A stretch of DNA of 64,000 nucleotides from sequence record KX828711, one strand, 5' to 3'. Positions 14,875 to 20,578 of the stretch are shown here, in pieces. The notes under the pieces were generated by a model. That model worked only from the letters and a program-made list of their open reading frames with translations, was not told the DNA's origin and searched no databases. This stretch comes from Shigella phage SH7. The position numbers were made by a program, and so were the translations under genes. The stretch's first letter is position 1. Each line of letters starts with the position of its first letter.

Positions 14875-15839
14875 TGTATTCTTTAGAGGAATTTAATAAT
14901 CAAGCAATAAACGCAGATTTCCAACGTAATAATATGTTTAGCTGCGTTTTTGCGACAACTCCATCAACTAAAAGCTCATCGTTGATAAGTTCAATTAGCA
15001 ATTTTTCTTATAATAACTTGGGTCTAAATTCAGATTGGTTAGGATTGTCTCAAGGCGATATTAATCAGGGAATTACAACGTTAATTACAGCTGGCACACA
15101 AAAACTAATAAGAAAATCAGGAGTCAGTAAATATCTTATTGGTGCCATGAGTCAACGTACTGTCCAGAGTTTATTAGGCTCATTTACAGTTGGTACATAT
15201 TTAATTGACTTCTTTAACATGGCATATAACTCATCTGGATTGATGATATACTCTGTAAAAATGCCAGAGAATAGATTATCCTATGAAACTGACTGGAACT
15301 ATAATTCTCCTAATATTCGTATAACTGGAAGAGAATTAGACCCTTTGGTTATTTCATTTAGAATGGATTCAGAAGCTTGTAACTATCGTGCAATGCAAGA
15401 CTGGGTTAACGCTGTTCAAGACCCAGTAACTGGATTGCGTGCTTTACCGCAAGATGTCGAGGCAGATATTCAGGTCAATCTTCATTCTCGCAATGGATTA
15501 CCACATACTGCGGTGATGTTCACTGGCTGTATTCCAATATCTGTGAGTGCTCCTGAGTTATCATATGATGGAGATAACCAAATAACTACATTTGATGTTA
15601 CTTTCGCTTATAGAGTCATGCAGGCTGGAGCAGTTGATAGACAAGCTGCCCTTGAATGGCTTGAATCTGCTACTATAAATGGTATTCAAAGCGTTCTCGG
15701 AAATAGTGGAGGTGTTACTGGACTATCTAATTCGCTTTCACGACTTAGTAGATTAGGGGGAACTGCAGGAAGCATTTCAAATATTAATACTATGACAGGA
15801 ATTGTCAATTCGCAAAGTAAAATATTAGGAGCAATATAA
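14874..15839 (+). CDS. 54: Baseplate tail-tube initiator gp54
   Basis: 321 aa (T4 gp54 320 aa); syntenic. Confidence 0.9.
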   Translation: MYSLEEFNNQAINADFQRNNMFSCVFATTPSTKSSSLISSISNFSYNNLGLNSDWLGLSQGDINQGITTLITAGTQKLIRKSGVSKYLIGAMSQRTVQSLLGSFTVGTYLIDFFNMAYNSSGLMIYSVKMPENRLSYETDWNYNSPNIRITGRELDPLVISFRMDSEACNYRAMQDWVNAVQDPVTGLRALPQDVEADIQVNLHSRNGLPHTAVMFTGCIPISVSAPELSYDGDNQITTFDVTFAYRVMQAGAVDRQAALEWLESATINGIQSVLGNSGGVTGLSNSLSRLSRLGGTAGSISNINTMTGIVNSQSKILGAI

Positions 15840-15843
15840 CAAT

Positions 15844-15861
15844 GGGGACCGAAAGGTCCCC
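15844..15861 (+). terminator. Rho-independent terminator after gene 54
   Basis: GGGGACC-GAAA-GGTCCCC hairpin followed by ATATTTTTATTT. Confidence 0.75.
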
Positions 15862-15867
15862 ATATTT

Positions 15868-16158
15868 TTATTTACGGAATGAAATAAAGGCAGCAACTGA
15901 AGCAACAGAGGTTTCTTCAATATAAACCTCAATTTTTACCGGAGCTTCTGACTCAAATTTACCTGTTACTACACCTTGGAAAATACTTTCAGTCTGTTCT
16001 GGCTTTGAAAAATTTTCAGAAGGAAAAATTCCAAACTTTTTATCGGTTCCGAAAATTTTAATAAATTCATCGTAAACTGCTTCATTAAAAGCATTATCAG
16101 CAGGAATAACGCCTTCAACTACAAGTTCTTGACCTAAAAAGCGCAAAGAAGATTTCAT
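15868..16158 (-). CDS. Hypothetical protein downstream of the alt genes
   Basis: 96 aa ORF behind a strong early promoter and an AGGA ribosome-binding site. Confidence 0.6.
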   Translation of the reverse strand: MKSSLRFLGQELVVEGVIPADNAFNEAVYDEFIKIFGTDKKFGIFPSENFSKPEQTESIFQGVVTGKFESEAPVKIEVYIEETSVASVAAFISFRK

Positions 16159-16165
16159 TTTGTGT

Positions 16166-16219
16166 TCCTCATGTTATGTCAGTAAGACTACTATAACACA
16201 ACACGAGGGACTTGTAAAC
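16166..16219. repeat. 54 bp direct repeat, copy 1 (early promoter plus leader; copy 2 at 31935-31988)
   Basis: 53 of 54 nt identical to 31935-31988. Confidence 0.85.
16190..16219 (-). promoter_or_regulatory. Early promoter for the 96 aa ORF
   Basis: Minus strand GTTTAC then 18 nt then TATAGT, followed by an AGGA RBS and ATG. Confidence 0.65.
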
Positions 16220-18276
16220 TACATTTTGAACTTTTTAGACATTCCGTTAATGTTAACCAAAGAAGCTAAGATTTGAGAAACTTCGTTTTCCTCTTCTTTT
16301 GATTCTTCTACAAGGAATTGATTAAATCCAGCCATTGGACGAACTTCACCAGTTTCCATTAGATGGTCGCCATCATATACTGATTCTTCTAATTGTTCAG
16401 AAGGAGGAACGATTGTACCTTCGATTAGATACTTGTTATAAGCAGTTTCTTTCATAAAGTAAGTACTTACTTTATTAATCTTCAGTAAAATTCCACGTGG
16501 TAGAATAACTTCAGCTTCTGATGGAAATCCTGATAAATGACCCGGAACGATAACTTTAACTCGTTCAGCTCCTTTAATTACCATACCCACGCTAGTTTCA
16601 GCATCTTCATTAGCATATGTAGAATGACTACCCATATGCATCAAATCTTCTGCATCAACGGAACCTTCTCCTTCACCAGAAAATACTGCTCCGGAATCAT
16701 CTAAGGCCATATAATTTTTACCATACTCACCAAAGATATTTGGTTTAAGTGATGTAGATACGAAGTTCTTGAAATAGAACATTTTATTTTCAATGTTATG
16801 ACGCAAAGTTTTAAAAGTAACTTCTTGTCCACGGTAAAGTGTAGTTCCTGGAGGAAGAACTGAACCTTTAGCAAACGCAGAATCCATAGTCTCGATGTGC
16901 TTAATAGCGCGCTCCATGTATTCTTCACGTGTAGAATCAGGTTTACCTAAAAGGAATGAGTTCATTTCAACATACGAATCTGCACAATAATCTTCAATTA
17001 CATCAGATTCAGCCTGAGTCAATCCTTTTGGAGTTACTTCAGTGCTTGCATATTCATACGCCTGAGCAGCGGATTCATCAATTAATTTATAAATGCCATT
17101 CATGACAAATTGAATAATAGCTGTCTTTTCATCTGGCGTAGCTTTAGAACCTTTAACTAAATCATTGACAATTTTCTTAATAACATCAAAGCTATTAGAA
17201 ATATTAATGTCAGCAAGATCGCTTAAAATTTTATCAGTTTTATAATCAAAAAATTCTTTATTCTTTAAATATTCTTGAGAACTTTGATATGTTATATCGC
17301 TCTGCAACTTGATAGATGGATCACGTAAACGTGCATGGGCTAATGCAATATGACTTCGGAAGCTTTCTAGTTCATAATCACTAGATTTAAAACGAGAAGC
17401 ACTCCTCATATCACCGATAGCTCCTTTGCCGAAGTTTGAACCAATCTGAATAACGCCAGAGTTCATTGGTCCTTCTGCTTTATATACCGGAACTTTAGAT
17501 TCAAACTCTTGATATTTCTTAGCAGCAAAGCTATCACCCTGAAGTGAAGCATCAACAGTAGAATATTGAGCTTGTGCTGCTAATCGACGACTAATTTTAG
17601 TTTTCTGAATAACAGCTTGATCCGTACGCTTATCATTTTCTAAAGCAATAGAAGCAGCAACTGCGACAGCTTTAGGAACAGCATTACCTGTTTTAACGTC
17701 TACATAAACATCACCGACTTTCGATTCAACTTTTGTGAATAACTCAGTTGAAATAGGAGGTACACCTGGAATGTCTTCTAAATTGGCATTTTTACGGTAA
17801 ACCATAATATATGCATATTTCTTATCATAGTCCCAGATTTCCTTTAAAAGAACATATCGACCTGCTCCTTTAGTACGTACTAAACGGTCAGCAATAACTT
17901 GCATTTGACGAGCAGCGCCATTTGTTTTACTTTTTAGTACGCGGAATAGGCATGCATCAATTTTATACTGTTTCATTGTTTGAAGAGCAGTATCAAAAAC
18001 AGCATTAATGACGCCAATTGGATTTCCACCCAAGTTTTTAAGCTTAACTAATGATAATTTTTCATTAACACCTATCATTACGATATGCATCATTTTGTCG
18101 CCTGGCTTAACGTTTTTATTCGTATCACCGCCAGAGGTGTATGTACAAAATCTAAATCCAGGAAGCACGCTTTCTTCACCGGCTTGAATAGCAAAAATTT
18201 GTGGTATTTTATGCTTAGGATTTAAGTTAACAACCGGCGCCGAAGCGCCGTCAAATAATTCTGTAATAAGTTCCAT
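16219..18276 (-). CDS. Alt-family ADP-ribosyltransferase paralog
   Basis: 685 aa; shares MELITELFD... N-terminus and conserved blocks with the adjacent alt product; ExE-type motif SEAEVILPRG; central region diverged. Confidence 0.8.
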   Translation of the reverse strand: MELITELFDGASAPVVNLNPKHKIPQIFAIQAGEESVLPGFRFCTYTSGGDTNKNVKPGDKMMHIVMIGVNEKLSLVKLKNLGGNPIGVINAVFDTALQTMKQYKIDACLFRVLKSKTNGAARQMQVIADRLVRTKGAGRYVLLKEIWDYDKKYAYIMVYRKNANLEDIPGVPPISTELFTKVESKVGDVYVDVKTGNAVPKAVAVAASIALENDKRTDQAVIQKTKISRRLAAQAQYSTVDASLQGDSFAAKKYQEFESKVPVYKAEGPMNSGVIQIGSNFGKGAIGDMRSASRFKSSDYELESFRSHIALAHARLRDPSIKLQSDITYQSSQEYLKNKEFFDYKTDKILSDLADINISNSFDVIKKIVNDLVKGSKATPDEKTAIIQFVMNGIYKLIDESAAQAYEYASTEVTPKGLTQAESDVIEDYCADSYVEMNSFLLGKPDSTREEYMERAIKHIETMDSAFAKGSVLPPGTTLYRGQEVTFKTLRHNIENKMFYFKNFVSTSLKPNIFGEYGKNYMALDDSGAVFSGEGEGSVDAEDLMHMGSHSTYANEDAETSVGMVIKGAERVKVIVPGHLSGFPSEAEVILPRGILLKINKVSTYFMKETAYNKYLIEGTIVPPSEQLEESVYDGDHLMETGEVRPMAGFNQFLVEESKEEENEVSQILASLVNINGMSKKFKM

Positions 18277-18279
18277 GAT

Positions 18280-20340
18280 TTATCCTTGAACGAACTTGTA
18301 AGGCATGTTTGTAATATCTATGCAAGACGCAATAATTCCAAGAGATGATTCTACTTTCTGTTTAACATTTGATGAAACAAATGATGCAAAGTCAACTCTG
18401 TCTTCTATTTCAATATCACCTGTCATTGCAACCAATTCACCAGTTTCCATTAGACGGTCACCGTCATAAATGACTGATTCGGTGAGTTCTTCCGTAGTCA
18501 TAACTTCAGCTTGAATAAGCTTGTTGTTAGTTTTGACTGTTCCATCATTGTAAGATGCATCAGTTATTTTATTAACTTTGACCATTAATCCACGTGGCAA
18601 AATGACTTCCATTTCATTTGAAGGCGCTAAACTTCCGCCTGGTAAAACAACATTGACTTTATCAGCCCCAGTAATAACCCATCCAATTCCGACTAAATTA
18701 TCGCTAGAATTAACAAGCCCTTCATCATTTTTATCGATAGAAATGTTTAGACGCTTTTCATCTGGTAAAACACCAACAGCTGAATCAGTCATCCAAGTAC
18801 CAAAAATGTTTGGATATAATGATGTTGATACAAAATTTCTAAAATAAAAAACTCGATTTTTTACCAATGCTTCATATATTGAAGGTAACATTCGCTGTGA
18901 ACGATATAAAGTAATACCCTTTGGCAATCGATCACCATTTTTAAAGGCTGAATCTAAATTATCGATGGCTTGTTCTATTTCAGGTGCTGTTAAAATACTT
19001 GTACGCTCATCTGGATTATATAATCCCAAAAGAGCATTATTCATGTCTACATATCCTGAACCTACATATTCACGAATTCCGCGTTTTTGCGCTGGCGTGT
19101 ATTTAGATGAATCTTTATTTTCGACTATAGAATGCAATGACCATCCAACAGTAAGAGCATATCCACGTAATTCTCTTCGAATAATCTTTGTTTTTATTGC
19201 ATTCCAAGAATTTTGCACTAACTCATTATTCGCAGTGTCTTGATTTAAATGCGAATGCTTGTTAATATTTCTTTCTAACCAAGCACCTTTATATTTTTCT
19301 AAAGTATCATCGACTATAGAAGCAATAGTTTCTAAAGTTTTTATTGAAGTAATAGATTCTTTTCGTAATCTTTCTAAAGCTTTATTTTTTATTTCTGTAT
19401 TAACATCAGATTCTTTATCTTCAGGAATTATAGAAGCTTCTCTGAATGCCATTCCAGCTGTAACACTATTAAGAGCATTCTCTAATGCAAATCCTGAAGT
19501 AGAAATAACAGTTAATTCATTAGCATCAGAAATTAAAGGAGCGTCAGCGGGTTTATTTAATTCTGCTGCTGAAGCCTCAAATTTTTGAAACATCGGCGTT
19601 TCAAATCTAGAAGATTCCAACGACTGACTTTGTGCAATTGCTCTACGGGAAATTTTAACTTTAACGATTACAGCTTGGTCAGAACGTTTATCATTTTCTT
19701 GTGCAATAGATGCTGCAATTGCCTCATTTTTAGTTACTTGGGCTCCAGTATCTTTATTGATATAAACATCACCGACCTTCGATTCAACTTTAGTAAAGAG
19801 CTCGGTACTAATTTCCGGAACTCCTGGAATGTCTTCTAGTGATACATTTTTGCGATGTATAAGAATATATGCATACTTTTTATCATAATCCCAGAGTTCC
19901 TTAAGAAGGACGTATCTGCCACCTGAACGACTACGGATAAGTCTATCAGCAATAACTTGAATTTGTCGAGCTTGGCCAGCAGTTTTAGACTTAAGAATAC
20001 GAAGCATACAAGCATCAATTTTATACTGACGCATCGTTTGCATTGCAACAGTAAAAACTGAATTGATATAATTAATTGGGCTTGGACCAAGACCTTTTAA
20101 TTTAGCAATTGAACCTTTAGCAGTTAATGTAAAAGGAACAATATGCATCATTTTATCGCCCATTTTTAAATCGCGATTAGTATCACCTCCAGATGTATAG
20201 GTACATAAACGAAAGCCTGGTTGTTCAATTGCGTCATCGACATGAACTGAAAAAATTTGTGGTATCTTCTTCTTTGGATTTAAGTTTGTAATCGGAAGAG
20301 TAGTATCTTCGTCAAATAATTCTGTAATAAGTTCCATCAT
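18280..20340 (-). CDS. alt: Alt ADP-ribosyltransferase (virion-packaged)
   Basis: 686 aa (T4 Alt 682 aa); MELITELFDEDTTLPITNL N-terminus; NEMEVILPRG ExE motif; immediately downstream of gene 30 with own late promoter. Confidence 0.85.
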   Translation of the reverse strand: MMELITELFDEDTTLPITNLNPKKKIPQIFSVHVDDAIEQPGFRLCTYTSGGDTNRDLKMGDKMMHIVPFTLTAKGSIAKLKGLGPSPINYINSVFTVAMQTMRQYKIDACMLRILKSKTAGQARQIQVIADRLIRSRSGGRYVLLKELWDYDKKYAYILIHRKNVSLEDIPGVPEISTELFTKVESKVGDVYINKDTGAQVTKNEAIAASIAQENDKRSDQAVIVKVKISRRAIAQSQSLESSRFETPMFQKFEASAAELNKPADAPLISDANELTVISTSGFALENALNSVTAGMAFREASIIPEDKESDVNTEIKNKALERLRKESITSIKTLETIASIVDDTLEKYKGAWLERNINKHSHLNQDTANNELVQNSWNAIKTKIIRRELRGYALTVGWSLHSIVENKDSSKYTPAQKRGIREYVGSGYVDMNNALLGLYNPDERTSILTAPEIEQAIDNLDSAFKNGDRLPKGITLYRSQRMLPSIYEALVKNRVFYFRNFVSTSLYPNIFGTWMTDSAVGVLPDEKRLNISIDKNDEGLVNSSDNLVGIGWVITGADKVNVVLPGGSLAPSNEMEVILPRGLMVKVNKITDASYNDGTVKTNNKLIQAEVMTTEELTESVIYDGDRLMETGELVAMTGDIEIEDRVDFASFVSSNVKQKVESSLGIIASCIDITNMPYKFVQG

Positions 20341-20360
20341 ATCCTCTCTAGTGTTTATTC

Positions 20361-20368
20361 TATTTATA
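20361..20368 (-). promoter_or_regulatory. Late promoter for alt
   Basis: Minus strand TATAAATA about 20 nt upstream of the alt ATG. Confidence 0.7.
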
Positions 20369-20374
20369 AAATTA

Positions 20375-20390
20375 AAGGCCCGAAGGCCTT
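20375..20390 (-). terminator. Hairpin downstream of the gene 30 operon
   Basis: AAGGCC-UUCG-GGCCUU in transcript sense, overlapping the stop of the 62 aa ORF. Confidence 0.6.
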
Positions 20391-20578
20391 TAGTAATCTA
20401 GTGGTAAGAGAGTACGATATATTTCAAACTTTGGTCCTTTTTCATAGGCATCAAATGTTTCTGTAAATTTATTGTAAGCGTATGCATCTACAAATTCGAG
20501 AATGACTTGTGATACAGAAGTAGAAACATCTCCACCTTCTTTTTGAGCAATGACAATTGTTTCTAAGTAAGCTTTCAT
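20390..20578 (-). CDS. Hypothetical protein between gene 30 and alt
   Basis: 62 aa ORF; its start overlaps the gene 30 stop (ATGA). Confidence 0.55.
   Translation of the reverse strand: MKAYLETIVIAQKEGGDVSTSVSQVILEFVDAYAYNKFTETFDAYEKGPKFEIYRTLLPLDY

Follow-up and report, generated by a model that had tools for sequence, protein, structure and literature searches.

Alt2 of Shigella phage SH7, a full-length paralogue of Alt and candidate second injected ADP-ribosyltransferase

Why would a T-even phage encode two complete Alt proteins side by side? The question is raised by the alt locus of Shigella phage SH7 (sequence record KX828711), of which a stretch of 64,000 nt, part of a Tequatrovirus (T4-like) genome and called the window below, was analyzed. 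Two adjacent open reading frames (ORFs) lie on its minus strand, 18280-20340 (686 aa) and 16219-18276 (685 aa), with a gap of 3 nt. The upstream one is alt, whose product is here called Alt1; the downstream one encodes its paralogue, Alt2. An earlier note made from the sequence of the window had reported this pair with exactly the coordinates, lengths and gap that the ORF list gives, and had proposed that the downstream copy could be a second injected effector with a different host target; all the sequence evidence assembled in this study fits that proposal. On balance, it seems rather probable that Alt2 is packaged into the head and injected as a second transferase, one that is specific for arginine and has other targets than Alt1.

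Alt1 and Alt2 as full-length ADP-ribosyltransferases

Over their full length, Alt1 and Alt2 showed 42% identity and 56% positives in BLASTP, and the E-value of 2e-158 indicates a similarity far beyond chance. Identity was distributed unevenly: it reached 68% over the N-terminal 235 aa, fell to about 16% centrally and was 36% across the ADP-ribosyltransferase catalytic (ART) domain, which bears out the strong central divergence noticed earlier; the conserved blocks listed along with it (KYAYI, LEDIPGVP.ISTELFTKVESKVGDVY, YF.NFVSTSL and E.EVILPRG) were all found in both proteins. The Pfam family PF03496 (ADPrib_exo_Tox; cut-off 23.4 bits) matched Alt1 at 4e-34 (118.1 bits) and Alt2 at 8e-20 (71.5 bits), and PHROG 802, 'Alt-like RNA polymerase ADP-ribosyltransferase', spanned residues 1-685 of both (7e-264 for Alt1, 4e-256 for Alt2), in agreement with the earlier description of two full-length Alt-family enzymes. 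Both contain the full Alt architecture of N-terminal module, helical linker, ART domain and C-terminal tail, and the precomputed Pfam pair PF03496 and PF26846 was present on all homologues.

The catalytic motifs were located at Y478-R479, S504-T-S506 and E575-M-E577 in Alt1, and at Y481-R482, S507-T-S509 and E587-A-E589 in Alt2. In an alignment of 66 family sequences these positions were invariant or at least 90% conserved. The earlier note had claimed an ExE-type motif for both copies and named a loss of catalytic residues from the downstream one as the result that would speak against it; the pairwise alignment revealed no such loss, since the Arg, S-T-S and E-x-E elements are all retained. 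The spacing from S-T-S to E-x-E is 80 residues in Alt2 versus 71 in Alt1 and T4 Alt. The Alt motifs also line up with TVYR and EYEVLL of CDTa, and the ART fold of R-S-ExE mono-ADP-ribosyltransferases was recognized. A search of Protein Data Bank chain sequences returned no match for Alt2 and weak CDTa matches for Alt1; to our knowledge, no Alt structure has been solved. Searches of NCBIfam and PADLOC gave no match for Alt1, Alt2 or the product of the next gene, alt.-3. Judged from these profiles and motifs, both genes are intact and encode full-length R-S-ExE mono-ADP-ribosyltransferases of the Alt family. At 96.5% identity to T4 Alt, Alt1 would be expected to modify Arg265 of the RNA polymerase alpha subunit and the other Alt substrates. 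Bacterial toxins of the C3, Vis, VIP2 and CDTa types share the R-S-ExE center but are without the N-terminal and central modules of Alt, and use other delivery routes. ModA and ModB of T4 are short proteins that are made early and are not packaged.

Distribution, loss and ancestry of Alt2

The distribution of Alt2 was investigated in 50,697 phage records of GenBank, searched with megablast and tblastn; these records were used instead of IMG/VR because a scan of the latter gave 5 loci, too few for population analysis. The full-length gene was found in about 400 records, nearly all with at least 95% aa identity (401 records at 80% or above), including T2, AR1, PP01, HP3, RB51 and ime09. Phage ECO4 has the closest protein (99.7%), followed by Bas37 (98.2%) and T2 (98.0%). 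Whether relatives already annotate this copy had been left open in the earlier note; they do, under a variety of names: Alt-like RNA polymerase ADP-ribosyltransferase (twice), alt.-2, alt.-1, Alt2 and hypothetical protein. In Bas37 (Escherichia phage KarlGJung, MZ501089), the gene bas37_0032 (QXV82013.1) bears the GenBank note 'ADP-ribosyltransferase Alt2'; it is called alt.-2 in RB51 and ime09 and AR1_201 in AR1, and the full-length T2 gene is labelled 'alt.-1'. Compared with SH7 Alt2, these Tequatrovirus genes encode proteins of 97-99.7% aa identity, have the same length of 2058 nt, and likewise lie 3 nt after alt and before alt.-3. SH7 differs from Bas37 and T2 only in that it pairs Alt2 with a T4-type Alt1, whereas they pair it with a T2-type Alt1; otherwise there is no substantive difference. 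Duplications of alt have been noted in 44RR, RB49, JS98, Bp7, Ac42 and ZZ1, and alt.-1/alt.-2 of T4 have been described as a partial alt duplicate (PMC1524935, PMC4177764); the T4 GenBank record itself calls them an old duplication of alt. The tandem pair is therefore already known and widely annotated, and is the standard alt locus of Tequatroviruses other than T4. As a genomic feature it is nothing new: it occurs in hundreds of annotated T-even genomes, and its T4 remnant has stood in the T4 record for decades.

The remnant (T4 locus L004, 3553-3938) shows how T4 came to differ. T4 DNA aligns to the window from 18298 to 17929 and resumes at 16238-15860; its two segments meet within a direct repeat of 9 bp, CTAAAAAGT, whose copies in the window are at 17937-17929 and 16238-16230. 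T4 is thus without 1699 bp, approximately codons 117-680 of Alt2, and because one nucleotide is missing from an A-run, what remains of the frame is divided into alt.-1 and alt.-2. These two frames cover roughly the first 116 codons of Alt2, with 96% DNA identity, whereas SH7 has the gene intact. A 100-nt probe across the T4 junction detected the same deletion in 91 records, T4 included. On the evidence of this junction, intact Alt2 represents the ancestral condition and that of the majority (about 80% of records), whereas the T4 state, in which the gene was lost by deletion, is derived.

Across nine Tequatroviruses, Alt2 had a mean nonsynonymous divergence (dN) of 0.008, a mean synonymous divergence (dS) of 0.19 and a dN/dS of 0.042, with aa identity of at least 97%; Alt2 is under strong purifying selection. 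It exists in a single form. Alt1 occurs in Tequatrovirus in two allelic forms, T4-type (SH7, AR1, KNP5, T4) and T2-type (T2, Bas37, PP01, ime09, CrRp10, P8), which share 73% identity and show a dN/dS of about 0.4 in comparisons between types. The two types hardly differ in their N-terminal 235 aa and C-terminal tails, and identity is 35% in the central region and 67% in the ART domain. In its pattern, the allelic difference looks like a swapped effector body.

Trees and identity tables were built for each module separately (N-terminal, central, ART). For its central and ART modules, Alt2 falls together with the downstream genes of Dhakavirus (identity 55% in ART and 43% in the central module) and Moonvirus, its nearest ART-domain relatives outside the genus, and Alt1 groups with the upstream copy of Dhakavirus (ART 64%) and with the single alt genes found in Mosigvirus and Gelderlandvirus. 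The duplication is therefore older than these genera, with gene position conserved. Tandem pairs likewise occur in Dhakavirus (dhabil_260/259; JS98/Bp7), Moonvirus CF1, Biquartavirus 44RR (ORF187c/alt) and Acinetobacter phages ZZ1 and Ac42 (PMC1524935, PMC4177764); compared with SH7, the tandem copies of these other Straboviridae are 35-55% identical. The N-terminal modules, by contrast, fall into clusters that follow the genus and not the position of the gene, with dN of 0.28-0.32 between paralogues of the same genome versus 0.53-0.59 between genera. Recent gene conversion was considered as the source of this similarity and rejected, since synonymous divergence of the paralogues has reached saturation (dS about 1.4) in each of the modules; older conversion, exchange of module and effector body, or co-evolution with the prohead core of each genus are possible explanations.

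At the very start of the genes the picture differs at the DNA level. The first 27 nt (9 codons; 18250-18276 and 20311-20337, minus strand) are identical between the paralogues, with synonymous sites elsewhere saturated as above. This suggests a constraint at the nucleotide level or very local conversion at each gene start.

In Yersinia phage PST (locus L017, 2901-4961), alt is one chimeric gene whose 5' end resembles Alt1 and whose remaining body is that of Alt2 (ART 98%), which shows that the tandem copies do recombine. In Citrobacter phage CF1, a Moonvirus (L023, 3001-5123), the downstream gene is annotated as two ORFs, 231 and 230, and in Shigella phage sb4 (L016) both alt genes are broken into several ORFs. 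The split frames of CF1 and sb4 could be real decay or sequencing errors.

The frameshifted, deleted remnant in T4 and 90 other records, together with the two-part downstream copy of CF1, might suggest that the downstream copy is a functionless, decaying duplicate on its way to the T4 state. This is very improbable. The frame is intact in about 400 records, the catalytic residues are conserved, the paralogue lineage predates the split of the genera, and a dN/dS as low as that given above, at a dS of about 0.19, effectively refutes a pseudogene.

Predicted packaging, targets and role of Alt2

Alt of T4 is a protein of the prohead core, with about 40 copies per head, and is ejected along with the DNA (PMC9026906). 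The prohead protease gp21 cleaves it at ITE-6 and LTE-619, the latter site having been mapped by mass spectrometry (PMC5694885). Alt1 contains the corresponding motifs, ITE-6 and LTE-620. In Alt2, ITE-6 is accompanied by LEE-631 (L-E-E at 629-631) directly before the sequence YDGDxLMETGE, which represents the presence of a motif rather than cleavage. That the two proteins have the same N-terminal processing signal, as the earlier note stated, holds for ITE-6; their first nine residues, which include it, are identical. YDGDxLMETGE is a family-wide motif, preceded by L/I-x-E in 13 of the 14 Alt family members examined, and the AlphaFold model of Alt2 has low confidence after about residue 629, as would be expected of a propeptide. 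The N-terminal module had 69 matches in 1.84 billion representative proteins. All but 12 of these were proteins of 461-786 aa with the module at their N-terminus, and the shorter 12 look like fragments. Among ten matches scanned, seven had PF03496 above the cut-off, one was truncated and sub-threshold, and two full-size proteins (485 and 541 aa) had no Pfam domain. Because Alt2 has the complete N-terminal module, the same first nine residues and both gp21 motifs, it would be expected to take the same route into the head as T4 Alt.

By homology to T4 Alt, the following course of events can be proposed. Alt2 would be made late and brought to the prohead core via its N-terminal module, where cleavage by gp21 at ITE-6 and LEE-631 would leave about 625 aa as the mature form. 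Alt2 would then be ejected together with the DNA into the next host and use NAD+ to mono-ADP-ribosylate arginines of host proteins. Since the central helical region and the ART domain diverge so strongly from those of Alt1, the proteins modified by Alt2 most likely differ from the Alt1 targets or overlap them in part.

Functional data are available from Bas37. In the preprint describing HIDEN-SEQ, T4 Alt was reported to help the phage escape the Mokosh type I defence, and the T2-type Alt of Bas37 did not complement it (bioRxiv 10.1101/2025.11.20.689424). The Mokosh-conditional genes named by its authors are alt, modA and beta-alpha-glucosyltransferase; Alt2 is not among them. According to the supplement, transposon insertions in Bas37 Alt2 were recovered at 116 of 164 sites and the gene was classed as 'Intermediate', with Alt being classed as 'Non-essential'; the mean insertion count was 44.5 for Alt2 versus 203.6 for Alt and 169.7 for alt.-3. 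This suggests that disruption of Alt2 may cost fitness even on K-12.

Another account would regard Alt2 as a redundant back-up whose targets are those of Alt1 (Arg265 of RNA polymerase alpha and the further Alt substrates), so that it contributes dose or robustness and no new function. The architecture, catalytic motifs and processing signals common to both proteins are consistent with this, as is the finding that T4 manages without Alt2 and phage PST without the Alt1 body, as if either sufficed. Such redundancy nevertheless seems unlikely. Despite the low identity of their ART and central regions, each lineage has been kept separately across genera; Alt2 is under much tighter constraint than Alt1 with its two divergent forms; and the two genes behave differently in the Bas37 transposon data.

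Several observations weigh against a distinct, injected Alt2. Alt2 showed no conditional requirement in three comparisons with clinical isolates (log2 fold change 0.00 to +0.19; HIDEN-SEQ supplement), and its lowered insertion counts, on which the authors did not comment, may have a technical cause. T4 and the 90 other records with the deletion are without Alt2, which is therefore dispensable in at least some backgrounds. For Alt2, the literature searched contained neither virion proteomics nor an enzyme assay nor an identification of targets, the rows of the HIDEN-SEQ supplement being the only functional data, and late expression would equally permit action inside the producing cell. From the last two points it could be argued that Alt2 is not packaged at all and acts late on host or phage proteins of the cell that makes it, for example against a late-acting defence; the late promoter of the locus and the lack of proteomic evidence of packaging in the literature searched are what such an account has in its favor. 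We consider it improbable, for a complete N-terminal module with both gp21 motifs is sensible only for a component of the prohead core, and the module is almost confined to this family of proteins of roughly 600-790 aa in T4-like phages, in which most of the members checked combine it with an ART domain.

The preferred interpretation thus remains a second, injected transferase with distinct targets. Its fullest version is put forward tentatively, as a possibility that falls short of an even chance: Alt2 would be a capsid-packaged arginine ADP-ribosyltransferase with a conserved host target of its own, may be the one of the two that is under the tighter constraint and matters more for fitness, and would have been overlooked through the deletion in T4, while the N-terminal module would be a cassette for delivery to the head that is specific to the genus, and the effector, made up of the central and ART regions, would be exchangeable. 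Most T-even phages in nature encode, and may inject, two different Alt enzymes, and nearly all Alt biochemistry has been done on T4, which has one. Considering this focus on T4, the strong conservation of Alt2 and the common occurrence of two Alts in T-even phages, Alt2 is a reasonable candidate for a host-takeover or anti-defence effector.

Layout and transcription signals of the locus

The features of the locus are listed in Table 1. The gene order is 30, alt.1, alt, Alt2 and alt.-3, followed by the convergent gene 54. At the upstream end, alt.1 shares 4 nt with the end of the DNA ligase gene, and the terminator and the late promoter of alt come directly after alt.1.

Table 1. Features of the alt/Alt2 locus in the SH7 window
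Feature	Coordinates	Strand	Remarks
alt (Alt1), T4-type allele	18280..20340	-	96.5% aa identity to T4 Alt; PF03496; PHROG 802
Alt2, downstream paralogue (alt.-2 / Alt2 in relatives), 685 aa	16219..18276	-	AAGGA ribosome-binding site inside end of alt
Alt2 N-terminal module, aa 1-235, presumed head-core targeting	17572..18276	-	68% identical to Alt1 module
Alt2 ART domain, approximately aa 415-625	16402..17034	-	
alt.-3, DUF5498, 96 aa, last gene of predicted operon	15868..16158	-	Pfam PF17602 at 3e-62
T4-type late promoter TATAAATA, predicted driver of alt, Alt2 and alt.-3	20361..20368	-	
Hairpin terminator closing ligase/alt.1 transcript	20373..20392	-	8-bp stem, 4 G-C pairs, T-rich tail
Bidirectional hairpin terminator, alt.-3 / convergent gene 54	15842..15863	both strands	9-bp stem, 6 G-C pairs
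alt.1, 62 aa	20390-20578	-	Pfam PF24647 'Phage blade protein' at 2e-29

The earlier note had both proteins start with MELITELFD. This is correct for Alt2, but the upstream ORF as delimited begins with MMELITELFD. Because T4, T2 and Bas37 share the ATGATG at this place and the T4 annotation takes the second ATG, alt probably starts at 20337, giving a protein of 685 aa.

Within 15800-20450, the only exact TATAAATA on the minus strand is the one at 20361-20368, located 20 nt 5' of the first ATG of alt, in a context that is the same in T4, T2 and Bas37; only the upstream copy has its own late promoter, as had been noticed before. A separate late promoter for Alt2 was considered and rejected, since the interval contains no second exact TATAAATA and sites with one mismatch either fall within Alt2 or lie at a distance of more than 800 nt on the 5' side of its start. 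One terminator (20373-20392) sits immediately 5' of the alt late promoter and the next (15842-15863) follows alt.-3; the terminator scan found none between Alt2 and alt.-3 and none internal to the three genes. The AAGGA of Alt2 lies 6 nt before its ATG, within the last codons of alt, and alt.-3 has the ribosome-binding site GAGGA. Given the single late promoter, the ribosome-binding sites of the individual genes and the lack of a terminator among them, alt, Alt2 and alt.-3 are predicted to form one late operon. In T4, the expression of alt is late (PMC9697503).

The last gene of this predicted operon has been linked to phage defence in other work. T4 mutants with a C-terminal extension of Alt.-3 escape the CmdTAC defence system (PMC11618068), and the Bas37 orthologue of alt.-3 was depleted on strain CFT073, with a log2 fold change of -2.70 and a q of 0.02 (HIDEN-SEQ supplement, bioRxiv 10.1101/2025.11.20.689424).

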